Numbered from the stretch's first letter, positions 24,123 to 61,033 are shown. The stretch: 64,000 nt of DNA from a virus (IMGVR_UViG_3300043436_001797:1-64000); one strand, 5' to 3'. Program-made: numbers and translations. Notes: generated from the sequence alone by a model not told the origin.

Positions 24123-25751
24123 ATGGCAACTCCAGTTTTAAATAATGGTATATTTCTACGAGATACCAACTACGCAGCTAGTTCACACGTAGATTCATAC
24201 CACTTAGTTAACATGTTAAAGAATGCAGAACCAATGGACATGGGTCCAGTGGATCTGTGGGCAATGGCACAAAAAGTCGAAATGCCTCTTTACCAAATGT
24301 CTAGCTTTGGTGGTAAGAATGTGATCATGGTTGACAACGCAAGAGGTGAGTACAAGTGGCAGACTCCAGTTGTACAAGATCTTCCTTACGTTATTGAAGA
24401 TATTGAACCAAGCAATACTGTTAAAGGTATTGATGGCAGTACCTTTAAAATTAAACTTTCACGTCGTGAGTTCGGTCATGGTGATATTATCACTTATGAC
24501 AAGTACAACGGTGTGGAAATGTACATTGTTCCTGATCAGGATATTCTTCCAATGGGTGATGGTTTTATTTACACAGTACAACTTGTAAATAACGACAACA
24601 CTAAGTTCTTGGAAAACAAGTATCTTGCATCTGGTACTAAAGTATTCCGCAAAGGTTCTGCTCGTGGTGAGTACGGAGAGCGTTTCTCTGATATTCAAAT
24701 CCAGTCAGGTTTCCGCGAATTCTACAACTTTGTAGGTGGTGCTGAAGCTCACGTACACTACTCTATTTCATCTCGCGCTGATCTTATGATCAAAGGTGGT
24801 ATGAATGCAGATGGTACTGTACCTGTAACTGAAATCTGGAGAAACTTCGACCAGAACATGGATCCTTCTATCACTAACCTTGAGAACATGGTTAGCCGTA
24901 TGGGTAAGGAGTATGTTAAAAAGGCGATGTCAAACGGTAACCTTTCTCGTACTTTCTTGACTACAATGGAAGCTGCTCACTTGACTAAAGTAGCAAGCGA
25001 CATTGAAACCTACTTGATGTGGGGACAAGGTGGTAGAGTTCGTCAAGACGGTCCAGATGATGTAAGATTGTCTGTGGGTCTTTGGAGACAGCTTGACAAC
25101 TCATTCAAGCGTGTATACAACAAGTCAGGTTTCAACCTTGATTTGTTCCGCTCTGAAATCTACAACTTCTATGCTGGTAAGGTTGAATTTAAGGGTCCAG
25201 ATCCTAAGCGTCAACTGATCGTACAAACCGGTATGGGTGGTATGAGAATGGTTAACGAAGCTATCAAGAAAGAGGCAGTTAACTCAGGTTTGGTTATCCA
25301 AGCTGCTGATAACGCTGGTATCGGTGCTATCACTGGTAAGGGTATGGATCTCGGATTTGGTTTTGCATACACTTCTTACGTTATCCCATTCTTGGCAAAC
25401 GTGAAGTTTGTATTGAACCCTGCTTTCGATAACATCCACACTAATGACATTGAAAACCCAATCATTGACGGTTTCCCATTGTCTTCTTACAACTTCATCA
25501 TCTTCGATATCACTGACAACACTAACGACAATATCTTCTTGTTGAAGTTGTCTTGGGATAACCAATTGAAGTGGTGGTACCAAAACGGTACAATGGACTA
25601 CATGGGTCGTACCCAAGGATTCCAGTCTTCTGGACAGTTCAATGGATACCGTGTATATATGACACAAACAATGCCTGCAATTTGGGTAAAAGACCCAACC
25701 AAGGTGTTGAAGATCGTTATGAGAAACCCTGTAACCGGCGGATCATTCTAA
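24123..25751 (+). CDS. Major capsid protein
   Basis: 542 aa in canonical position with strongly biased codons (AAC/TTC/GGT), followed by a terminator. Confidence 0.8.
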   Translation: MATPVLNNGIFLRDTNYAASSHVDSYHLVNMLKNAEPMDMGPVDLWAMAQKVEMPLYQMSSFGGKNVIMVDNARGEYKWQTPVVQDLPYVIEDIEPSNTVKGIDGSTFKIKLSRREFGHGDIITYDKYNGVEMYIVPDQDILPMGDGFIYTVQLVNNDNTKFLENKYLASGTKVFRKGSARGEYGERFSDIQIQSGFREFYNFVGGAEAHVHYSISSRADLMIKGGMNADGTVPVTEIWRNFDQNMDPSITNLENMVSRMGKEYVKKAMSNGNLSRTFLTTMEAAHLTKVASDIETYLMWGQGGRVRQDGPDDVRLSVGLWRQLDNSFKRVYNKSGFNLDLFRSEIYNFYAGKVEFKGPDPKRQLIVQTGMGGMRMVNEAIKKEAVNSGLVIQAADNAGIGAITGKGMDLGFGFAYTSYVIPFLANVKFVLNPAFDNIHTNDIENPIIDGFPLSSYNFIIFDITDNTNDNIFLLKLSWDNQLKWWYQNGTMDYMGRTQGFQSSGQFNGYRVYMTQTMPAIWVKDPTKVLKIVMRNPVTGGSF

Positions 25752-46655: not shown

Positions 46656-47249
46656 ATGATGAGGAACTTTAGAAAACCGGATCTTGCTGCTCCCCGATTC
46701 AGACCAAAAGCTTTCAATGTTCTAAATAAAGAACTCTGGAAAGAATTTAAGGAGAAGTACCCGAAGTATAAAGATCTTACTTACATGGACTTCAAGAAGA
46801 TTATAAAGCTAAGTAACCAGAAGTTCTGGGAAAAGGTAATCTCTTATAGAGATGGTGTTGAGTTACCTGAGAGTCTAGGTTTTATTTTTATAGGTACGTG
46901 TACATCTCAGAACCCTAAAAGAAAAAACATAAACTATGGTAAATCAATCAAGTACGGGTTTGAGGTAAGCAACAACAATCTTATTTCTGACGGAAAGCTA
47001 GCTAAGATTTTTTATACAAACTACGCGGTTAAGTATAAAGTTAGAGATAGAGAGATCTGGACGTTTACTCCTTGTAGATCTTTTAAGAGACAGGTTGCTA
47101 AGACATATCCAGAAAACTGGGAAAAGTATATTGAGGTTCCGGATAATCTTAAGATATCCAGATTGTATAATGAACTGATTTCTAAAGACGTAGAAAAGAA
47201 AGAAGTCTCATCAGCAATTATAAACTATAACGAATTTGATTTAAGCTAA
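46656..47249 (+). CDS. IHF/HU-like basic protein
   Basis: GVELPESLGFIFI..FTPCRSFKR, HU-like arms; gene order before the tail genes. Confidence 0.6.
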   Translation: MMRNFRKPDLAAPRFRPKAFNVLNKELWKEFKEKYPKYKDLTYMDFKKIIKLSNQKFWEKVISYRDGVELPESLGFIFIGTCTSQNPKRKNINYGKSIKYGFEVSNNNLISDGKLAKIFYTNYAVKYKVRDREIWTFTPCRSFKRQVAKTYPENWEKYIEVPDNLKISRLYNELISKDVEKKEVSSAIINYNEFDLS

Positions 47250-47923
47250 TGACTACAATAGGAGAGAGCATATCAAGGGTTAGAAACTTGGTAAAAGCAG
47301 CAAAGCAGGATGCTTTTATGACTGATAGATTTATCTACAGTCTTATTGTAAAGTATGCTAAGTTGTTGATTAAGAGACAAGACGCTCTTAATGTAAGACT
47401 TAAGTTCGCAAGTCTTTTTAGAACTCTCCCTTGTGTAGAGTTAATTGAGACCGACAGAGTTGAAGCTTGTTGCGGAAGCTTACCTGACACTTGTAAGGTA
47501 ATGCGCACTAAGGAAAAGATTCCAGTACCTTTTGAGGGAGCTTATGGTGCTTTTATTAGAACGGTCTCATCTATAGACGGATCAGTTGAGGTTTACAGAA
47601 CTCAACCCGCTCAATTTACATCTATGACTAAGACTACTGCTTTTAAGTACAACAAGCAGAAGTACTACTGGTATATGAATGGTTATTTATATCTACCGAA
47701 CATTGAGTGGGAAAGCATTTTGCTAGAAGGGATATTTGAACAAGACATTGCAATATTTACATGTGCTGCTGACGGTATTTGTAAAATACGCCAGAATGAT
47801 ATCTTAGGTATTCCTGATGACTTGTTTGCTGAGATTGAGCAACAGGTTATGTCGCAGTTGTTGGGTACTGCACAACTTCCAACGGATATTAATATTTCTG
47901 ATAAACAAAACGTTCTAAGATAA
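47249..47923 (+). CDS. Tail ring protein
   Basis: TDRFI..R..LPCVEL..YLY..EGIFE pattern; gene order. Confidence 0.6.
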   Translation: MTTIGESISRVRNLVKAAKQDAFMTDRFIYSLIVKYAKLLIKRQDALNVRLKFASLFRTLPCVELIETDRVEACCGSLPDTCKVMRTKEKIPVPFEGAYGAFIRTVSSIDGSVEVYRTQPAQFTSMTKTTAFKYNKQKYYWYMNGYLYLPNIEWESILLEGIFEQDIAIFTCAADGICKIRQNDILGIPDDLFAEIEQQVMSQLLGTAQLPTDINISDKQNVLR

Positions 47924-48837
47924 TGGATTACAACTACACCCTGAAATACAGGACCTTTGATTCTCTTCTTGAGGATGTTAAGATGGATCTTAGAAACTTG
48001 TCAGCTGATACAAGTATTGAACCCGGACAACTTATCAAAGTAGCGCGTAAGTGTAACTACGATTTGGGTCTTCGTATTCAAAGAAGTAGAGAGACTGTTC
48101 TTGAGATAGAAAAAGGTAAAGCTCGTCTACCTGAAGATTTTCAGGTAATGAACTTTGCTCTTATGTGCGGTAACTATGTTGTAGTAGAAGTTCCCCCACA
48201 GGGAACTAACGTTCAAGAAGTCACTCCAGGATATAGACCTTGGATAGATGCTAACCTTTGTTCTGATGTAAATGGAACGTGTCCGGAAACAACTTGTATG
48301 ACTGAATGCAATCAGTCGTATAAGCTTATCCAGATGGTAAACTCAGTACGTAGAGAATATACTACTTTCTCTCCTATCACTTTTAGAAGCTCTCAGTTTA
48401 TAGATGTTGATTGTCCAAACACCTGTTCACCTCGTTGGCAGAACAGAGATGAAGCGTACATCAAAGATGGTTGGGTGTTTACAAACTTTACTGACGGACA
48501 TGTGTACATTAACTATCAAGCAGATATGGTTGATGATGAAGGTAATCTTATAGTACCAGATCATCCCATGTTGAATGAATACTATGAATATTCTTTGAAG
48601 AAGAGAATACTAGAAAACCTTGTAATGGATAATGTAAACGTTACAGGTCAATATCAACTTGTATCTGCTGAACATAGAGTTGCTAGAAACGCAGCGTTTA
48701 GTATTGTGAATACTCCTAACTTCTCTGAGATGATGAAGGTGTGGGCGATGAACAGAAAAGCAATGTACTCTAAGTACTACAATATGTTTAAGAGCTACTA
48801 CTACCCTCTTAATTTACGAGTTAATAACGCTATTTAA
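47923..48837 (+). CDS. Tail tubular/adaptor ring protein
   Basis: LEIEKGKARLPEDF..TNF.DG.VYINY..DDEG..VPD; immediately before the muzzle gene. Confidence 0.65.
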   Translation: MDYNYTLKYRTFDSLLEDVKMDLRNLSADTSIEPGQLIKVARKCNYDLGLRIQRSRETVLEIEKGKARLPEDFQVMNFALMCGNYVVVEVPPQGTNVQEVTPGYRPWIDANLCSDVNGTCPETTCMTECNQSYKLIQMVNSVRREYTTFSPITFRSSQFIDVDCPNTCSPRWQNRDEAYIKDGWVFTNFTDGHVYINYQADMVDDEGNLIVPDHPMLNEYYEYSLKKRILENLVMDNVNVTGQYQLVSAEHRVARNAAFSIVNTPNFSEMMKVWAMNRKAMYSKYYNMFKSYYYPLNLRVNNAI

Positions 48838-51800: not shown

Positions 51801-54101
51801 AAAACTATATCTATAACAGCATCTTGTTTTTATGCTGGTTTAAAAATTAGATTTAGAAACCAATACGGACAATTAGATCAGATTAGACAAATACCTTTAC
51901 CATGTCCGCATATTGTTAATAACAATAAACCTATTCCGGATTCTGCTATTGATGCTCCAGTAGGGTCCACTGTTACTATATTTAATGCTAATTACTCAAC
52001 TGATGTTTTATTTGGAGGTGACACATATATAGGCAGATACACAGAAAAGAATACTTTCTTTTATTTCTATGATTGGTTATATGGTCAACCTGATGAAACC
52101 CCATTTAATTATAGGGCTAAGTACTTGGGTTTATATCCTCGTTACTTTGCAGACTTTAGTAGATATGATATAGATGGGTTAATACCCACAATGCTGCAAA
52201 AGTTTAATCAACCTAATACATGGGATACACCCGCTAATCAAGTTAACTTAGAACAGGAATCTACACCCGTAGGTTTACTAGGATTAGTACGTATGGCTTT
52301 TAATAATGTATTACCTAATTTAATTGGTAATGCAGATGATAATAGTTATAGCAGCGGCGATAATAAATTTTCATTTTCTATAAGAAGAGGTTTCATGTAT
52401 CTCTTTAGCTCAGGTGTAAGGGATTTCTTTGTAGAATCTGATATTAACGTAGACCAAAGAGACTGGGGTGAACTTGATGAACAAAAACACTTTGAGGTTC
52501 TTTCTGACCTTAAAACATTGTTTGATACTAGAATTATTAGATTTGGTAACTACTACAAGATTGACCCATCTATTTCAGTATCAAAGCTTTACTACAGTGT
52601 AGTATCTTGGGGTAACATGCAAGATAGAGACTATAATCCTATGGTATCTGCTCTATGTTATAAGTACTTACCTAACAGAGTTATCTACTCGTTACCTACA
52701 GTTCTTGAAGGAAAGAAAGATGGTTGGAGAATATTCTTACCAAACAACTATAGAGACTTTAAGTCTAAGGTTACTGCTATTAGACCTATAGGTAAGAACG
52801 GAGCATTGATGCTCTTTGATAGAGATAGTCCCGTACAGATTCAGGGTACCGAAACTCTTGAGTCTGATATGGGAACTAAGATTACAGTAGGTGATGGTGC
52901 ACTGTTTAATAAACCGTTACAAGCACTTACAAACACAGACCAATCTTATGAGTATGGATCTTGTCAAGATAAGTTTTCAATTCTAAATACACCAGCAGGT
53001 ATCTACTGGGTATCTCAGTCTCTCGGAAAAATATTTTCAATAGGAAGCGGACTAGAAGAGATATCTGCTTCTGGTATGCGTTGGTGGTTTAGTAAGTTTT
53101 TACCTTACAGAATACTAGAGGATTTTCCAAACTTTGAAGCTACAGATAATCCGGTAATTGGTGTAGGTTGTCAAGCTGTTTATGATAACGACTTCTTGAT
53201 GATTTACTTTACTAAGAAGGACTATGAGCTTAGAAAAGATTTACCTGCGGGAATCAGTCTTACATATGTTGGTGGTGTAGATTTTATCTTGAACACAGGT
53301 GGTTCTTCGGGATCTTCTGGAGATAAAAATAATACAAGACCTAATGCTGCTAAAATTAAGTTAGGAGATCCTAATTACTTTAACGATGTATCATGGACAA
53401 TATCATATGACCCTAAGTCAAAAGCTTGGATCTCTTTCCACGATTGGCATCCGACAATGATGATCCCTAGTAACCAGAACTTTATAACTATTAATGATAA
53501 TACTTTCTGGAGACATAATAGTCGCACTGATAGTTTCTGTAACTATTATGGGGTTGATTATCCATTCCAGGTAGAGTATGTGGTAGATACAGGACAGACA
53601 GTAAATACTTTAAAGAGTATAGAATACTTACTTGAGTCATATGTATACGATATAGATGGTATTGATAGATTCCAGCTTTTAGACTTTAACTTTGATGAAC
53701 TTATTGTATATAACTCTGAACAAGTTTCTGGACAACTTAATCTCAATATGGCACCTAAGGATAATCCTTTTGCTAGATTGAATTATCCTGCTGTAACTGG
53801 TGCGGGGATAAATATTATGTACGAGAAAGTAGAGCAGAAGTTTAGAGTAAATCAGTTCTGGGACGTTACTGCAAATAGAGGCGAGTATGATGTAAATATT
53901 CAAAGACCGATTTGGTTAACTGGATGGGATGGATATAAGCGATCTTTGAATCCTGCTAACTTGAATTATGCTAAGTCAGTATTTGAAAGAAAGAAGTTTA
54001 GACATTACTACAACAACGTTCTGTTTACCAGAAAGGTTTCGGGTAATGCTAAAATGCTAATGAAGATATCTAACAACAAAAACTTGCTGTCACCGCGATG
54101 A
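48840..54101 (+). CDS. Tail stabilisation/muzzle protein (P22 gp10-like)
   Basis: 1753 aa; F.KGL.RD..ARN..G..GNE, YMRDEVYSF, NQYG, FGGDTYI, WTISY..WISFHDW. Confidence 0.75.
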   Translation: MAKKQGNTPESGISSNSGSFTKGLVRDFDENFDPESSWPYARNASNNSKEGDVGVLGNEPSNSACGVAPYTVIGRIFLFNAYWAIFSTDDSNSEIGVYDESLCQYRTVVNQKCLNFRKLNLVTGVAKENFDCQWAVYFADGRNPDRYINIGNPALWPDTPYLGNNYYQNNVLWPGVQWIQDCQIINSCTICENTNSLDCEEIRINKLVNTPCVKVSAKEGGGNLANGSYVAFIAYLENGQKYGDYTSPSNVQPIFDHDNLGGSITVEVSNLENKSFTEFELVIAATVNGQTVARRIGQYACSDGPVLVYLDSINDSLPTVPLELLPIRSPLYETSDSIFETGSYLLKIGPRTTFDFNYQPLANQIEAKWAIVRYPSDYYKSVGSNTGYMRDEVYSFFIRWIYATGEKSKSYHIPGKIGDSKDTTQSIGIYSAELEYGFEKENTATITSTTTYSLSDGGVVIAEGTMGYWQSSEKYPDRNPEVWNSSYDPRISGTSQTTWDLCNQPIRHHKMPEDVISNDLKYTRAVILDSAGNIVPSPKYTGATHIQIVGVKFSNIKPPVYIDDDGNTKVIPGIVGYEILRGSRTGNKSIIAKGIINNMRSYTDIDDTEGLYANYPFNPVKDISGTIDPTLSITPVNGNGSNYTPVTESHVKKNFLTFHSPDTSFYKPFLAVKELKLYTELGNPGNAKGTFEPVPGHPKEKLLSNVSSTTAMILGIAEAIFAMKGEEGWEGEESRSLNIGLGGTMVMPTPGGVFGAPSLMYPTFGVPGGNVYEGLKQAQVLGQTGLSASAQGLTGGLMSLGGAGMVTGNNAQLFYMGDKLASNGYALAGGYMGPTRRRMHKEGVMSGLPLIANIFAVVPTLYTLATNAASKTIDLIYAFVKARSYVYRFISHGFLHKDNLPPASRRHYINDVAYLNEGFNMFGGYKINNINRFKTTVLTTANDVALPNIVDNTGVSISRNVSSNVTAATMDPSLTGKPASAPVAELIKTISITASCFYAGLKIRFRNQYGQLDQIRQIPLPCPHIVNNNKPIPDSAIDAPVGSTVTIFNANYSTDVLFGGDTYIGRYTEKNTFFYFYDWLYGQPDETPFNYRAKYLGLYPRYFADFSRYDIDGLIPTMLQKFNQPNTWDTPANQVNLEQESTPVGLLGLVRMAFNNVLPNLIGNADDNSYSSGDNKFSFSIRRGFMYLFSSGVRDFFVESDINVDQRDWGELDEQKHFEVLSDLKTLFDTRIIRFGNYYKIDPSISVSKLYYSVVSWGNMQDRDYNPMVSALCYKYLPNRVIYSLPTVLEGKKDGWRIFLPNNYRDFKSKVTAIRPIGKNGALMLFDRDSPVQIQGTETLESDMGTKITVGDGALFNKPLQALTNTDQSYEYGSCQDKFSILNTPAGIYWVSQSLGKIFSIGSGLEEISASGMRWWFSKFLPYRILEDFPNFEATDNPVIGVGCQAVYDNDFLMIYFTKKDYELRKDLPAGISLTYVGGVDFILNTGGSSGSSGDKNNTRPNAAKIKLGDPNYFNDVSWTISYDPKSKAWISFHDWHPTMMIPSNQNFITINDNTFWRHNSRTDSFCNYYGVDYPFQVEYVVDTGQTVNTLKSIEYLLESYVYDIDGIDRFQLLDFNFDELIVYNSEQVSGQLNLNMAPKDNPFARLNYPAVTGAGINIMYEKVEQKFRVNQFWDVTANRGEYDVNIQRPIWLTGWDGYKRSLNPANLNYAKSVFERKKFRHYYNNVLFTRKVSGNAKMLMKISNNKNLLSPR

Positions 54102-57100
54102 AAGTTTCTAAGACAGGTTATAAGAAAAACTCTAAGGATAAGAACGAACCATCATTGCTTATCCCCTCTAATAGAATTACTATGAAGGGTGTAGAGTTTC
54201 CCGTGTACGGAATAGATGATACAGGATACTCTCAAATGATGTATCCTGGTTTAGATTACTCGTTTCCAGGTAGTTATGTTTATGAACTTCCTATGGCAAA
54301 AGAAGGTGGATACATACTTCCGGGTAGATATAAAAATCCAGAAGGTAACTGGTTGAATAAATATCAGTCAGATAAAAAATCAGGTCAGGTAAAAAATTAC
54401 TGGACATGGAATCCTAAAGCTACTTCCGAAAGAGATAGTATTCAAAATATTGCCGGCAATATATTAAACTATGAAATTCTAAGAGGTGGTCCAGGGGGTA
54501 GCCCGCTCACTTACTACAGTGATCCTGAGTATATGAATACCTTGATGAATGATATATATCCGCAAGTTAAAAAAATGATGCCTAATGCTACTCCCGTAGA
54601 AATGGGGGAAGCTATGGATCTTATTTTTAATAGTGGTTGGGATAAGAGCAATAAAAAAATATTAGTAGATCCTAGAGCATATGCTATACAAGAATACTAT
54701 AGAGTACATGATAAATCCAAACTAGATAAAGAAGGAAACTGGGCAGGTAGAAAAGCTACCCCCGGTACATTTGATAGTGAGTATGCTAACACTGTTGGTA
54801 AACTTTCTGAAAATGAAAGAAGGATTATGATGAATAAAGGGAGAGACTGGTTTTATCAACATAGAGCTCCTAAAGGATCAACCTGGGATTTAAAAACGCA
54901 AGGTGCTTATCCAGACTATGGAGCTACCTGGTATGGAAGAATATGGAATACTAATGATTACGCTCCATTTAATCCGAATAATCCTAAATTTATTTATCCG
55001 TATAAAACAGGCGGTGAAAAATGGTTAGATAAGTATCAAGGTAAAACTAGCGCTAGTGAGGTAAGTTCTTTAAAAGAAGAATCATATAGAACACCTTGGT
55101 GGAATCCTGAAAATTCATCTGAATGGAATCCAGCATGGACATCAGATCCAATTAGACAGAATGCACAAGCAGAGTTTCCGGGTACATATGTATTACCTAC
55201 TGTAGAGATTACAGATGAAAAACCGCAAAGGTTTAAAGATCAAGAAACTGCTGCCGTAGTTAGACAAGTTCTTCCAGATAGAACTATCTTATCAGCATCA
55301 GATGATCCAGAGAAAACATATGAGGATTTTATAAATAGTTCTCGTAACTATCGCAATGCAAAATTAAATGATACTCTAATAGATATAACTGATAAACCAA
55401 TGGGATGGTTTACTTTTAATACAATCCCAGGAGAGAAATACACAGATATATTAGGAAATAACTATATAGAAGTAAATAGGGGTGGAACAGGTAAACCAGA
55501 AGACTATGCTAAAAACTGGAAAACCAGAATGCAGGATCCTAAAGATACTTTTAGAAATAGTGATTATGCTGAAGACGCTGGAAGTTATTACCATAGTAAA
55601 GATATTCCAGCATTCTATGGTATAGAAAATAATAAGTTTAAAGTTGGAAACCCTGGAGATTTTAAAGATGATACAGTAATTGTTCCAGTAAGAAATAGCA
55701 CAACTCCATATAGTAAAGTCGAAGTTGAAAAAGGACTGTTTAAAGATAATTTATATACATATGATAAAGACGGAAATAAAATATGGAACTTACGGAATAA
55801 ACAAAAGTTTTTAGTACATTCTCCGGTAACAAATAGAACAATCTTTATATCTAAGGACAGTTACGAAAATCAAAATTCCAAAGAAAGTTATGCCACAACA
55901 AAAAAATCACTAGATGATTTTTCAAAAAATAATCCAGATGCTTATATCATATCTCTAGATGAAGGTAGATTTCGTGCCTACATGAATTCACCAGAAGGTT
56001 TAGATGATGAAAGTTTTAAGACCTGGAATGCATTTTCTGGTACAGTACTACATAATTATTTAGAAGGACTCGGTAAGGAAGCAGTAGATCATGGTCCCGG
56101 TACATCGGGTTCTCCTTTATATTCTCCTGTAGGTGATGAAAGATATGGATATAATCTAGGTATTCTAAAACAAAAACATGGAGGATGGCTAGATAAATAT
56201 CAATCTAAGACTACATCTGGTTCTGTTTCTAAATCTGGTCCAAGAATTGAAAACTTACCGCTTCAGAAGGTTGATAACAAACTAGAAATAGCATACGATG
56301 GAAGCACGGTATACCTACGTAAAATAGGTGAAGATAAGTTTACTACACTTAGTCCAGAAAAGTCTAAAGCTTTTATTCAGAAGTATCAAGAGCATATACC
56401 ACCTAGTTATTCTAAGGTTGAAGAACAGAAGAAAAAGCAAGCAGCTTATAATGCAAAGGTAGCTGCTGAAAAGAAAGAGATGGATGAGCTTCTTAAGTAC
56501 ACTCCATTAAAACTTACTAAAGAAGAAAAGGATAGAGTTCTAAAAGAGTCTAAAGATGCGCGAGCTGAACTAGCTGAGAAGAGTTGGTTAGACACAGCAT
56601 GGGATGCTACTAAAAGTGCATATGAATCTTTACCAGATGTTTCAGATTTTACTAACGCGGTTAAAGGTGCATATGAGTCTTTGCCTGATGCAGAAAATGT
56701 AATTAAGTTGATGAATTTATCAAACGAGGCAACAAAACTAGCAGCAGCTTATGCTTGGAATTATAAGATACCTGAAAATGATATACCTGGTTTAAGAAGT
56801 TTCGGTGAGCTTTCACCAAAAGAAATATATCAAAGTTTTGAAAATAGATTTATAGAAAAAAACTTTGGTGAGGATACACCAACAGGTGAGTCAAATATTG
56901 AAGAGCTTAATCTGATGTCAGAAGAAGATGTAACTTCTGGAACTTCAGATATGGAACAGTTAAATAAAAGTAGAGCTAAGTACGGACCACAGCGATTACC
57001 CGCAAGAAGAGATTCTAGAGGTAATATGTTACCATCATATCAACCTATTGGTGGAAATGATTCACTAGCTAGATTTAGCTACACATTTAACAATGATATT

Positions 57101-60100
57101 CTAGGTGCTGATACTTTACCTCCTACTCACTTTGTTACACCTAAAGTAAAAGAACTTACAGGAAATCCATCTAGACCAAGAAAATGGGAGAACGCATTTG
57201 CTGTAGGTGATTTCTTGAGAGATGCTGATATAACTGAAAATCAGTTTTATCACCCAGATAAATATTATGTGGGTACTTCTCTTAGCGCACTTCGTAATAG
57301 TGACCTAGGTATAAAAAGCAATAAACTCATAAGCGCTAGTAATCAACTACTTAATGATCCTGAAAAATACTGGGCGGTGTATAAATGGGATCCTGAAAAT
57401 CCTGCAGCAGCATGGGTTAGGTATATGAAAACTAATGAGATTAAGTCTAAGAAAGATCAGTTAGAAAAACAAGGATGGCATCTTGATATGCCTGTATCAG
57501 GTCAACATAGATTTGATGATGTTGATTGGGAAGGCAAAGGTTCAGACACAGGTTATAAAGCAGATTCAGAATGGGTACCGCTTAAAAAAGGTGCTAAAAA
57601 CATAAAGAGTCAAAAAGACGTAAATCATACTTATATACCACAGGGAACTAAAAAAGGTCAAGATAAAACATCCTATAATTTATTCTCTGGTGGATCTATA
57701 ACTTTTGTATGGACTGATCCTGAGACTAATGAAAAACTTGCGTCAACAGTAGCCGGTTCAGTTTCTGACATGAAACAGTATGGTGAAAAACTTAAAAAAG
57801 ATTATGGATTAAAAGAAGGTGATCTTGATATCATATACCATGATACAGGATCCTACTCCGCTAAACCAGCAGCTAAAAATGGTACATTATACTACGATCA
57901 ATGGAAAGACTTTAACGCATATAACAAAGGCTATTCCGGCGCAGCACTGATAGTACCTACACAAAATTGGTTAGAGAACTGGACACCTAATAAAAAAGAA
58001 GGAGGACAATTAGATAAGTACCAATCTGAGAATACAGGTGCTATAAAAAAAGGATGGCATCAAAAAGTTTATAATGATCCTATTGCATTTGCAAAAGCTA
58101 ATAAAGCTTTTAACGATAGTCTTAATCTTAGCAAAAGAAGTTACGAGCTTCTTAAGGATATAGCTCCTAACAGCTCATATAAAAGTAATATTCCCTATGA
58201 AGATGTACATTGGACAGCTGATGGACCAGGTGGTTATTTTATAGATAATGTTGACTTTGGTAGGCAGTTTTTAGGTTTAAATTACTTAACCGATACTAAT
58301 TTTAGAATACCTGGTACAAAAGAGCAACTTATCTTAGAAGAAGCTTTTTCAAAAAGAATAAAACCAATAGGTTTTAATACAACTGACGTTCCAGTACCTA
58401 TTTATAAACTACCAACTGAAGAACCTGTGTATGAAGAACTTAAAAACTTACCTTATCTAGATGCAAAATTGGAGCGTCCTGATTTTAACTTAGATATAGG
58501 TAAACCACCGGTAAAGTCTCAGGGTATTAGAATTAGACCTATGATGACTGCTGATCAAGCTACTAGTACTGGTCAGTATCAATCCGGTAAGTATATGTGG
58601 GATCCAGAAACAAAATCCTGGAAAGTCAAAATGCTAAGTCCTGAAACTCAACAAGAAAACAGAAAAGAGGTTAGAATAGGGATTAAAAAAAATGGTGGAT
58701 GGCTAGATAAATACCAAGATGGTAAAGAAGTAAATAAACCTGTTAGCGCAACATGGTCGGATGAGTTTGGTACTTACATGCTTCCCGAAGTAACTGTAAA
58801 ACCATCCATTAGTCCTGAAGCAACTCGAGCAATACTGAATAGAGAAGCGGGTATGTCTATTTCGCCTGCTCCGTCTGCGGTTGATAGAAGAGTAGCACAA
58901 ACTCAGTACATGTTATCTAACCCACTTGATGCGCTTGGTCATTACTCTAGATATGGTTATGTTCCGCAAGGAAACCTGGGTAACTATGGTATGAGAGAAA
59001 AATCAAGTCCTGTTGGTCAATTACTAATGGACTTCAATCCATACAACTGGGCAAACGCTGCATACAGAGCTGCTATAAGAGGTGGGGATCCTGATACGTA
59101 TACAACAGTTCCTGGTGCTATTAATATGGGTGCAGATTTAGCTGAAGCACTTCCTGTTATTTCTGAACTAGGTCCTTTGCTTAAAGGTGCTAAATCTGCG
59201 ACAGGTGAAGCAGGTAAATATCTTACAGCAAAAACTCCTTTAAAGTATACATACAGATTAAATCCCGAGGCTAGAGGTAGTGTATTCAAACCCTGGGATA
59301 ACAGCATGGGATACCGTGTGGTTAATCAAGAAGGTTATGATGATGCCGTAAAAAGTTTTCTGGTAAGATCAAATCCAAAAGGAGATAATACATTATTTTC
59401 AAGACCTACAGGTTTTCCTTCTTTTGCTAAAGGAAAACCTAGCAAGAACTTTTTTAAGACGGATAATACACCTCATTATATAATGGAAACAGATATTCCA
59501 CTGTATGCAAGAGGGGAAGCAAATCCAGTTACAGGGATACCGATTAAAAGTAGTCATGGAGCAGCAAGACCTATTGATCCTATAACCGGTGAAACCCTAA
59601 CTTCATTTCCAATAGAGGATCTAAACGCTATATATAGCGCACAACCCCATTGGTTAAAAGGTTATCAGCGTGTTTGGCAATCACCTAAAAATATTCAAGA
59701 ATTAGGTAATTTAACATTAGGAAAAAACATTGCTACATCGGGAGCCTTTAATAGAGGTGTCTATGAGTTGCCAGATTATCCTGGATATTTGTTAAAATAT
59801 GAAGATACGGATTTAGTTAGAAATATGGCTTTGCGTGATATTGATGATCTAAATTTTGCCGATCTTCAAATGAATCTAAACTCTTCAAATGTAGGAAAAG
59901 TAATCAAACACTTTAAAAAACAAACTCATCCTATTGATCCAATGCTTGCAGGTAGAGATATGGAAGGATATCTGCTGCGCAGGATGCAAGGTAAACCACT
60001 AGCTACACTACAATTAGATAGATTAAAAGATATTCCAGAAAGTGCTTTTATTCAGTATGCAAAAGATTATGATAATTTAGTTCAACAGAAACTAGCAATG

Positions 60101-61033
60101 GATAATTACGGGCATAATGTACTTTATGATCCAGAAGATGAAGTGTTTAAATTTATAGATTTATCTCCGGAGGCTAACTCTAATATGAGTGATTTTTGGA
60201 GTGAACATGTGATTGATAATATAAACTCTAAAATGCCTAGAGAAAAACAACTAACAGGTATTAAAGGAGCTATTCTTAACCAAATAGATAATAATGTAAA
60301 CATTAATATTGAAAAAGCTATGAAGGATCTTCCTGAAGATGCTGATTTGGAATATGCTGACAAATTAAGAATTGGGATGGAGTTATTGGGTCAAGCTAAA
60401 AAGAATAGAGTAAAAAGAGAATTAGAAAAAGCAGGTTATAAAAAACTAGGTGGGTGGCTTGATAAATATCAAATAAAAGGTGAAGTAACTCCTCCTGCTA
60501 ATCTCCCTTGGATTAATGGTGCAAGCATACCTCAAAAGCAATCGGTAGAGCAACAAGTTAATGCTTGGTTAGGTGAACCAATGAAAAGAGCTGCAGAGGA
60601 AGCGGAGAGAAGAGCTGAACAAGGGGAAGATGCAGGTGACTCTTTTAGACACTCTAATGCAGGTAGATTAACTCGTGAAGAGCTAGAAAAAAAGTTTCCT
60701 GAACTTATGTTGTATACAGGTATTCCACAAGTTGCATCATTCTTAGGAGCTACAGCTTTAGGTATTGGTCATGAGGTAGTAGCACCTAATAGATCTCCGG
60801 ATTATTCTTGGTGGGATACAGCTAGAGAAGCAGGAGAAGACATTATCAACAATACCATAGGAGCAACGGGTTTATTTTCAGAAGAAGATCTTTATAACAT
60901 GTATCTGAACAACCAATTACCTGATGGATATGGTAAAGGAAATATGTACTTCAAACAGAAAAAAGGAGGAGAAATGTCCCCAAGTATGGGATATTTTAAC
61001 TATATTGGTGGATATAGGGGTATGTTGCCTTAA
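54098..61033 (+). CDS. Modular cargo/effector polyprotein (2311 aa)
   Basis: Six [WQ]L[DN]KYQ linkers, five directly preceded by KxGG. GH108-like, ART-like, kinase-like and DUF6973-like segments. Confidence 0.7.
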   Translation: MKVSKTGYKKNSKDKNEPSLLIPSNRITMKGVEFPVYGIDDTGYSQMMYPGLDYSFPGSYVYELPMAKEGGYILPGRYKNPEGNWLNKYQSDKKSGQVKNYWTWNPKATSERDSIQNIAGNILNYEILRGGPGGSPLTYYSDPEYMNTLMNDIYPQVKKMMPNATPVEMGEAMDLIFNSGWDKSNKKILVDPRAYAIQEYYRVHDKSKLDKEGNWAGRKATPGTFDSEYANTVGKLSENERRIMMNKGRDWFYQHRAPKGSTWDLKTQGAYPDYGATWYGRIWNTNDYAPFNPNNPKFIYPYKTGGEKWLDKYQGKTSASEVSSLKEESYRTPWWNPENSSEWNPAWTSDPIRQNAQAEFPGTYVLPTVEITDEKPQRFKDQETAAVVRQVLPDRTILSASDDPEKTYEDFINSSRNYRNAKLNDTLIDITDKPMGWFTFNTIPGEKYTDILGNNYIEVNRGGTGKPEDYAKNWKTRMQDPKDTFRNSDYAEDAGSYYHSKDIPAFYGIENNKFKVGNPGDFKDDTVIVPVRNSTTPYSKVEVEKGLFKDNLYTYDKDGNKIWNLRNKQKFLVHSPVTNRTIFISKDSYENQNSKESYATTKKSLDDFSKNNPDAYIISLDEGRFRAYMNSPEGLDDESFKTWNAFSGTVLHNYLEGLGKEAVDHGPGTSGSPLYSPVGDERYGYNLGILKQKHGGWLDKYQSKTTSGSVSKSGPRIENLPLQKVDNKLEIAYDGSTVYLRKIGEDKFTTLSPEKSKAFIQKYQEHIPPSYSKVEEQKKKQAAYNAKVAAEKKEMDELLKYTPLKLTKEEKDRVLKESKDARAELAEKSWLDTAWDATKSAYESLPDVSDFTNAVKGAYESLPDAENVIKLMNLSNEATKLAAAYAWNYKIPENDIPGLRSFGELSPKEIYQSFENRFIEKNFGEDTPTGESNIEELNLMSEEDVTSGTSDMEQLNKSRAKYGPQRLPARRDSRGNMLPSYQPIGGNDSLARFSYTFNNDILGADTLPPTHFVTPKVKELTGNPSRPRKWENAFAVGDFLRDADITENQFYHPDKYYVGTSLSALRNSDLGIKSNKLISASNQLLNDPEKYWAVYKWDPENPAAAWVRYMKTNEIKSKKDQLEKQGWHLDMPVSGQHRFDDVDWEGKGSDTGYKADSEWVPLKKGAKNIKSQKDVNHTYIPQGTKKGQDKTSYNLFSGGSITFVWTDPETNEKLASTVAGSVSDMKQYGEKLKKDYGLKEGDLDIIYHDTGSYSAKPAAKNGTLYYDQWKDFNAYNKGYSGAALIVPTQNWLENWTPNKKEGGQLDKYQSENTGAIKKGWHQKVYNDPIAFAKANKAFNDSLNLSKRSYELLKDIAPNSSYKSNIPYEDVHWTADGPGGYFIDNVDFGRQFLGLNYLTDTNFRIPGTKEQLILEEAFSKRIKPIGFNTTDVPVPIYKLPTEEPVYEELKNLPYLDAKLERPDFNLDIGKPPVKSQGIRIRPMMTADQATSTGQYQSGKYMWDPETKSWKVKMLSPETQQENRKEVRIGIKKNGGWLDKYQDGKEVNKPVSATWSDEFGTYMLPEVTVKPSISPEATRAILNREAGMSISPAPSAVDRRVAQTQYMLSNPLDALGHYSRYGYVPQGNLGNYGMREKSSPVGQLLMDFNPYNWANAAYRAAIRGGDPDTYTTVPGAINMGADLAEALPVISELGPLLKGAKSATGEAGKYLTAKTPLKYTYRLNPEARGSVFKPWDNSMGYRVVNQEGYDDAVKSFLVRSNPKGDNTLFSRPTGFPSFAKGKPSKNFFKTDNTPHYIMETDIPLYARGEANPVTGIPIKSSHGAARPIDPITGETLTSFPIEDLNAIYSAQPHWLKGYQRVWQSPKNIQELGNLTLGKNIATSGAFNRGVYELPDYPGYLLKYEDTDLVRNMALRDIDDLNFADLQMNLNSSNVGKVIKHFKKQTHPIDPMLAGRDMEGYLLRRMQGKPLATLQLDRLKDIPESAFIQYAKDYDNLVQQKLAMDNYGHNVLYDPEDEVFKFIDLSPEANSNMSDFWSEHVIDNINSKMPREKQLTGIKGAILNQIDNNVNINIEKAMKDLPEDADLEYADKLRIGMELLGQAKKNRVKRELEKAGYKKLGGWLDKYQIKGEVTPPANLPWINGASIPQKQSVEQQVNAWLGEPMKRAAEEAERRAEQGEDAGDSFRHSNAGRLTREELEKKFPELMLYTGIPQVASFLGATALGIGHEVVAPNRSPDYSWWDTAREAGEDIINNTIGATGLFSEEDLYNMYLNNQLPDGYGKGNMYFKQKKGGEMSPSMGYFNYIGGYRGMLP

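Follow-up and report, generated by a model that had tools for sequence, protein, structure and literature searches.

A kinase-like module in a giant phage protein

The stretch of viral DNA considered here, referred to as the window, comprises the first 64 kb (64,000 nucleotides) of an 81.8-kb viral contig, IMGVR_UViG_3300043436_001797, which is estimated to be 68% complete and has a GC content of 37.7%. The window harbors a giant multi-module open reading frame (ORF) of 2311 amino acids (aa), P0001, one module of which is a kinase-like domain (Table 1). A preliminary description of this DNA had placed such a domain at 59700-60440, based on five motifs in the order expected of a kinase: a glycine-rich loop (IATSGAFNRGVY), a catalytic lysine (YLLKY), a hinge (YLLRRMQG), a D-x4-N loop (MDNYGHNVLY), and an equivalent of the DFG motif (FKFIDL). 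All five are present, in that order and in a single frame of P0001, and no competing ORF of at least 80 aa overlaps P0001 on either strand of this range. The range itself fits the domain well: the core, delineated as the stretch common to distant family members (query residues ~24-230, i.e., aa 1873-2079), lies within it, and the confident part of the structural model extends to aa 2114 (position 60439). Searched as a sequence, the whole of P0001 has no match in Pfam, PHROGs, or the PDB (the latter by phmmer), and the domain alone finds nothing in PHROGs and nothing among PDB sequences (phmmer, E-value ≤10).

Conservation of the catalytic residues

A HMMER search covering 1.84 billion cluster representatives reveals a kinase family of 49 representatives at E-values ≤1e-3, 19 of which reach ≤1e-10 and six ≤1e-30. 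The proteins are longer than 1000 residues in 26 of the 49 cases, and the domain is found at their start, middle, or end; the relatives of P0001 (n=12) are 1287-2575 aa long. Word-index homologue searches add one short and two new long proteins. Locus searches with an alignment of eight sequences (A2) return one IMG/VR locus and two metagenome loci, and none in a collection holding one genome for each of 185,579 species; the same kind of search with the single domain sequence gives no match in viral or genome contigs. At the DNA level, megablast of 24 kb against deposited phage genomes finds no match. When seven more distant kinase-bearing proteins were scanned with Pfam, all seven lacked a recognised family.

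Alignment A1 gathers 36 copies of the domain. Five residues are invariant in it (36/36), namely G1882, K1900, G1965, N2007, and D2021, and four are nearly so: D2002 (35/36, with one Glu), G2005 (35/36), N1885, and G1887 (34/36 each). P2024 is kept in 32 of the 36 copies, D2021 is followed by Leu or Ile in 30, and E1902, two residues past K1900, is Glu in 28 and Asp in four. The family signature reads G-x-F-N-x-G-V-Y ... K-x-E ... G ... D-x-x-G-x-N ... D-[LI]-S-P. A local alignment of wider scope, counted over the rows covering all five key columns (five partial rows being excluded), keeps G, K, D, N, and D in 48 of 49 rows, the single exception having a Glu in place of the catalytic Asp. The conserved columns are those that a kinase needs, so that the roles assigned to the motifs in the preliminary description are backed by evolution, and not by eye alone.

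Variation within the natural population points the same way. Over four lake or freshwater sequencing runs, nine variant sites are found, none at an invariant residue; four of them are silent, and the remaining five bring mild replacements (D1947E, L1959V, L1960M, I2071V, and E2080K), L1960M being a change to the majority residue of the family. This pattern weakly supports the kinase reading, and it counts for little because the check relies on low depths and on contigs only, with runs X4 and X5 lacking cover over parts of the stretch.

A minimal kinase fold

AlphaFold2, supplied with the 36 sequences of A1, yields a model with a mean predicted local distance difference test (pLDDT) score of 94.8 and a predicted template modelling score (pTM) of 0.89, the pLDDT by block ranging from 87 to 98 from model residue 11 onward. 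Three strands (model residues 28-30, 36-41, and 48-54) carry the Gly-rich turn and the Lys, and a strand at 106-112 runs into the hinge Gly. A helix (132-147) precedes short strands bearing D153 (D2002), N158 (N2007), and D172 (D2021). Past the DFG-type Asp, only one short helix and then two long ones (199-227 and 235-262) are found, the last of them kept in closer relatives only; the model has neither an activation segment nor a standard C-lobe.

Fold searches return kinases. Foldseek against the PDB gives at least 500 matches at E-values ≤1e-3, the best being 1.2e-6, and the matches listed (ranks 1-50) are all protein kinases with a probability of 1.00. VIA-align against 48,161 representative chains gives 116 matches with Z≥8, led by PknS (Z 10.8). 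Among the best 50 of these 116, 48 are titled kinases or pseudokinases, and the two others are chains of large complexes (9fqr_Xr and a Pan2-Pan3 entry). The chains of OspG (Z 9.6, 158/169 residues aligned, root mean square deviation 3.8) and NleH1 (Z 9.4, 152/160 aligned) overlap the model almost end to end, and NleH1 shows the highest identity (21%) among the matches listed; RIO1 and RIO2 have Z 9.3-9.5. In BFVD, 226 matches are found at E-values ≤1e-3; those with names are kinases, mostly from giant viruses and including one cyanophage kinase, plus three nidovirus polyproteins.

Judged from this model, aa ~1873-2114 of P0001 almost certainly adopt a kinase fold of the protein-kinase-like (PKL) superfamily, with a normal N-lobe (five-stranded sheet), a hinge, alpha-E, and the catalytic and Mg-binding loops. 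The kinase-like fold claimed in the preliminary description holds against both the AlphaFold2 model and the fold searches, in addition to the conservation described above and to the profile match to solved effector kinases described below.

Since all family members hold on to the active-site residues for Mg-ATP binding and phosphate transfer, the domain most probably works as a phosphotransferase. The kinase fold might instead support another chemistry, for example AMPylation or glutamylation (SelO and SidJ being cases in point), or ATP hydrolysis only; alternatively, the domain might be an inactive pseudokinase used for scaffolding or packing. Atypical minimal kinases tend to acquire altered chemistry, the alpha-C Glu is not identified in this one, and the pseudokinase domains of JAK2, TYK2, and ULK4 figure among the VIA-align matches. 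Such roles are nevertheless highly improbable, as the canonical Lys, Asp-x4-Asn, and Asp kept in 48 of 49 rows form the set of ordinary phosphotransfer, with which a scaffold role is not expected.

Table 1. Coordinates of P0001, of its kinase-like domain, and of the adjoining segments (positions are those of the window)
Feature	Position	Strand	Residues of P0001	Remarks
ORF P0001, giant multi-module protein	54098..61033	+	2311 aa	
Core kinase-like domain, from the N-lobe strands and the hinge through alpha-E and the catalytic and Mg loops to the first helix after them	59714..60337	+	1873-2080	
Beta1-turn-beta2, equivalent of the glycine-rich loop (G1882, N1885, G1887)	59726..59767	+	1877-1890	Gly-loop string at aa 1878-1889 (59729-59764)
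Beta-3 lysine, binding ATP phosphates by its predicted role	59795..59797	+	K1900	YLLKY at aa 1897-1901 (59786-59800)
Beta-5 and hinge, last residue G1965	59969..59992	+	1958-1965	YLLRRMQG spans the same residues
Catalytic loop D-x4-N	60101..60118	+	D2002-N2007	MDNYGHNVLY at aa 2001-2010 (60098-60127)
Asp of the DFG equivalent (here D-L-S-P), predicted metal ligand	60158..60160	+	D2021	FKFIDL at aa 2017-2022 (60146-60163)
Two long helices at the place of the standard C-lobe	60239..60430	+	2048-2076 and 2084-2111	pLDDT ~97-98
Conserved upstream domain	59150..59683	+	1685-1862	Ends in PHWLKGYQ
Linker motif KNGG-WLDKYQ	58688..58717	+	1531-1540	Opens the segment with the upstream domain and the kinase
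Linker motif KLGG-WLDKYQ	60443..60472	+	2116-2125	Directly after the kinase module

Kinship with the NleH and OspG effector kinases

Compared with PDB sequences, the A1 profile matches NleH1 with an E-value of 1.7e-5, and NleH2 as well as a third NleH-type effector kinase with 6.3e-5. Weaker matches follow with OspG (0.064), ASK1 (0.069), and the kinase domain of WbdD (0.29-0.34). The A1-NleH alignment extends from the hinge and alpha-E through the D-x4-N loop and the DFG-type Asp to the Trp after it; the catalytic loop of P0001 pairs with the D-x4-N of NleH1 and NleH2, and D2021 with the Asp of their I-D-I-S. A protein-language-model Atlas places the family beside 29 unnamed viral clusters and a single neighbour with a name, a cluster of the OspG family (score 0.94). 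The profile and Atlas matches thus point to the minimal type III effector kinases as the nearest relatives that have been characterised. The solved structures used for comparison (PDB 4lrj, 4lrk, 4o96, and 4q5h) are those of such kinases, represented by NleH1 and NleH2 of enterohaemorrhagic and enteropathogenic Escherichia coli and by OspG of Shigella. The Pfam model OspG_kinase (PF22303) has no match on P0001 at E-values ≤1.

The domain shares with NleH and OspG the Lys, the D-x4-N loop, a DFG equivalent of the I-D-x-S type, and the conserved Trp after it. Both are also minimal kinases of ~170-200 residues, devoid of an activation segment and of subdomains VIII-XI. A core reduced in this way can still work as an enzyme: without subdomains VIII-XI, OspG autophosphorylates and phosphorylates CAND1 (PMC12756638). 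NleH and OspG are furthermore enzymes brought into another cell by an injection device, a trait to which the phage domain may be likened if, as is narrowly favoured below, P0001 is delivered from the virion. In contrast, the phage domain is a module inside a 2311-aa phage protein and not a small effector with a type III signal, and its model possesses an extra C-terminal helix past the OspG overlap. Its target would be a bacterium, without an E2~ubiquitin activator, unlike the eukaryotic host of OspG. Given the gene context of a phage virion module, type III secretion, eukaryotic targets, and activation by E2~ubiquitin are not expected.

With NleH1, NleH2, and OspG as nearest relatives, the domain would be a Ser/Thr or dual-specificity protein kinase, and by analogy with them proteins are the favoured substrates. 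A kinase acting on a small molecule or envelope precursor (a sugar, a lipid, a polysaccharide end, or an antibiotic-like compound), in the manner of WbdD, Kdo kinase, or the aminoglycoside phosphotransferases, is unlikely. That view draws on the weak contact of the A1 profile with WbdD, on the lack of an obvious peptide-binding C-lobe in the minimal domain, and on the cell-wall enzymes carried by relatives of P0001, P0006 combining a glucosaminidase with the kinase and P0008 combining PG_binding_1, the kinase, and ART-PolyVal. Yet the significant sequence matches (NleH1 and NleH2) and the fullest structural overlaps (OspG and NleH1) are with protein kinases, the best 50 of the 116 VIA-align matches include no aminoglycoside, choline, or Kdo kinase, and a role in the envelope would still require entry into the cytoplasm, as the periplasm is devoid of ATP.

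Comparison with Kinase-PolyVal and T7 gp0.7

The idea of a C-lobe-less kinase in phage "polyvalent proteins" is already known: such kinases were predicted in 2017 and likened to the T7 kinase (Iyer et al., PMC5512222). The corresponding Pfam family, Kinase-PolyVal (PF18762), is described there as a Ser/Thr/Tyr-type kinase that has lost its C-terminal subdomain and kept its active site, which is the same concept as here. It is set in giant multidomain proteins of Bacteroidetes-type phages and prophages and of conjugative elements, with a predicted modification of host proteins upon entry. A further connection is provided by P0008, which carries ART-PolyVal, a sister domain of Kinase-PolyVal.

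PF18762 itself finds nothing in the whole 81.8-kb genome at E-values ≤10, and matches none of the 36 family members at E-values ≤1. As described in PMC5512222, the marks of the Iyer family consist of a Glu preceding strand 2, a Gln in the N-lobe's final strand, and an insert that lies between a conserved His and the Asp. The present family has instead an Asn before strand 2 (34/36). Its Gln (26/36; His in P0001) lies in an earlier strand, at model residues 86-93, and it has no conserved His before D2002. The two are thereby set apart by described marks, and not by an alignment. As the 2017 prediction exists, the idea is not new, and the domain is a new sequence family of that kind. On the sequence evidence, the novelty lies in a family that is missed by both Pfam models, has NleH and OspG as nearest relatives, and is harbored by crAss-like cargo-type proteins.

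The preliminary description had also invoked the T7 kinase gp0.7 (T7K) as a phage kinase that rewires host proteins. This comparison stands as an analogy, and fails as kinship. T7K phosphorylates most of the proteome and disarms defence systems, according to PMC13645617, and is the functional precedent for a phage protein kinase acting on host proteins very early. As a candidate relative it was rejected: hhalign of A1 with gp0.7 gives a probability of 0.65% and an E-value of 0.088 over 53 columns, covering the Gly loop and the Lys only. The motif of T7K is D-P-V, as described in PMC13645617, versus D-L-S-P in the phage domain. Moreover, T7K possesses a C-terminal shut-off and DNA-binding domain and is made after entry, whereas the domain of P0001 would arrive ready-made.

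The phage and its putative virion cargo

The large terminase of the contig is nearest to those of crAss-like gut phages (~26% identity) and also matches Flavobacterium, Cellulophaga, and Bacteroides phages, and the phage is therefore a distant crAss-like one. The phage is uncultured, and its host is probably a member of the Bacteroidota, as judged from these sequence affinities. The crAss-like phages are abundant and mostly uncultured, and their giant cargo proteins are largely of unknown function. Near-identical DNA (window 58700-60700) is found in lake-water, freshwater, and plankton metagenomes of several studies. At least half of the sampled words are present in three runs, each from a different study, in addition to the likely source. 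This identifies a freshwater phage population, and not a gut one.

P0001 is encoded in a late block after the tail genes, beside other giant virion-type proteins, as are the cargo proteins of crassviruses. Upstream, a head-protein PHROG matches at 24123-25751 and virion-structural PHROGs at 47249-48837. The gene just upstream of P0001 codes for a 1753-aa protein that matches "virion structural protein" PHROGs (E-value 2e-42), as well as gp042 of Cellulophaga phage phi4:1 and a "structural protein" of FPSV-S29. In phi4:1, gp042 and the four genes after it are annotated from tandem mass spectrometry (MS/MS) of virions. P0001 is followed by ORFs of 549, 1136, 1126, 1852, and >2231 aa, the four giant ones among them having no match in PHROGs; phmmer against the PDB finds no match for the 1753-aa and 2569-aa neighbours. 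The gene order recurs in a 113-kb IMG/VR contig, where a 1727-aa ORF precedes a 2473-aa ORF with the kinase.

Delivery of P0001 from the virion is narrowly favoured, on the basis of this gene order and of the virion proteins verified by mass spectrometry among the relatives of its neighbour. According to PMC10172136, particles of PhicrAss001 contain cargo proteins amounting to ~5.5 MDa, whose ejection in a partly unfolded state is assumed, and gp45, gp46, gp47, gp49, and gp50 are large proteins encoded after the tail genes, stored in the particle, and expelled. P0001 is likened to this cargo by gene position; the word "kinase" has no occurrence in that paper (PMC10172136). A literature search, outside of which lay subscription papers and supplements, found no report of a kinase in the particle or cargo of a crassvirus. 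The classic case of an enzyme delivered ready-made is Alt of T4, a virion-packed ADP-ribosyltransferase (PMC5512222).

An active kinase could also do without delivery, by acting late in the infected cell on itself, on cargo, or on virion proteins during assembly, or because P0001 is not packaged at all. P0001 shows no membrane or signal feature, although no search aimed at one was made. Delivery being inferred from gene order only, this must be considered, and is quite unlikely: in related phages, the giant proteins encoded at the corresponding position belong to the virion by MS/MS, particles of crassviruses contain megadaltons of cargo (PMC10172136), and relatives of P0001 join the kinase to ART-PolyVal and to wall-degrading domains, which are typical of injected polyvalent proteins.

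A possible ready-made kinase for the infected cell

The best overall explanation, to which a probability of about 0.6 may be given, is that of a minimal kinase forming part of the phage cargo and acting in the host: the phage may bring into its host a ready-made NleH/OspG-like minimal kinase. P0001 would travel in the particle as cargo and be driven into the cell together with the DNA or in advance of it. It would perhaps be cut at the GG-WLDKYQ linkers that flank the segment (aa 1531-1540 and 2116-2125), and the kinase would refold in the cytoplasm after ejection. The domain would then bind Mg-ATP and transfer phosphate, OspG being the precedent for an active stripped core, and would phosphorylate proteins of the host, or phage proteins injected along with it, ahead of all phage gene expression. 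This modification would serve takeover of the host or counter-defence, as T7K does.

Several observations weigh against this explanation. Concerning the fold, the Foldseek TM-scores to full kinases lie at 0.35-0.49, which is expected because half of the target kinase has no counterpart in the model, and with VIA-align, Z values of 7-8 may occur without kinship (best here 10.8). No conserved acidic residue is found in the short helices after beta-3, where the alpha-C Glu would be sought. As a single sequence, the domain has no Pfam match at E-values ≤1, OspG_kinase touches just two of the 36 family members (best E-value 0.044), and P0001 carries no recognised polyvalent-protein domain or other Pfam domain. 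No activator of the OspG E2~ubiquitin type is known in bacteria, and full activity of OspG needs such a eukaryotic E2~ubiquitin partner, as reported in PMC12756638. Using tblastn against 50,697 deposited phage records, no match is found for the domain, for the whole of P0001, or for two short family members. The cultured relatives FPSV-S29 and phi4:1 also lack the kinase, which is thus an optional and exchangeable module for which a cultured system is lacking. The presence of P0001 in the virion, its cleavage, and its arrival in a cytoplasm containing ATP are predicted steps only.

A bolder version holds that a constitutively active, pre-made kinase floods the host with phosphorylation within the first seconds of infection, ahead of all phage transcription, and that NleH and OspG descend from phage cargo kinases; it is doubtful. 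The genes of NleH and OspG are located on prophages and on a virulence plasmid. The family is a possible evolutionary link to these effector kinases, and their descent from phage cargo kinases, if true, would make them a weapon of the phage-bacterium conflict re-used against animal cells. A kinase arriving with the DNA would act earlier than any expressed counter-defence, and in the bolder version it would be a packaged counterpart of the broad anti-defence action of T7K. The family has no name, escapes both Pfam and PHROGs, and is not found by tblastn in the deposited genomes of phages, and it offers an expressible module of ~250 residues for the 2017 prediction of working kinases in polyvalent proteins.

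Other modules and neighbouring genes

P0001 is punctuated by GGWLDKYQ and close variants, of which six copies start at aa 83, 307, 695, 1302, 1533, and 2118. They are mostly preceded by K-x-G-G and bound unrelated segments. The six copies use different synonymous codons, indicating selection on the peptide and not DNA repeats. In P0008 and P0010 the motif comes immediately after the kinase module, in P0006 it lies ~46 aa past the aligned kinase stretch, and motifs of this type are found at the extreme C-terminus of seven family proteins and at the N-terminus of two. The motif might act as a signal for cleavage, docking, or packaging.

The domain upstream of the kinase (aa 1685-1862) displays the conserved stretches Y-R-V, R-S, R-P-T-G-F-P-S-F, E-T-x-x-P, R-G-E-x-N-P-V-T-G, and P-H-W-L-K-G-Y. 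It accompanies the kinase in closer relatives and is found without it in P0011-P0014, which then run into unrelated sequence. Its single-sequence fold prediction has a pLDDT of 30.5 and is unusable.

Past the last linker, the C-terminal part of P0001 (60700-61033, ~aa 2170-2311) is another module, with a D-S-F-R-H-S-N-A-G-R stretch and a Gly-rich tail ending in K-K-G-G-E-M. Beyond the window, the last ORF of the contig (75125-81817 in the coordinates of its own genome, 13126-19818 in those of locus L008) exceeds 2231 aa, is cut by the contig end, and has no PHROG match. It possesses, near residue 2205, the string S-D-F-D-I-D-K, a possible D-x-D-x-D metal site such as a virion RNA polymerase of the crAss type would have.

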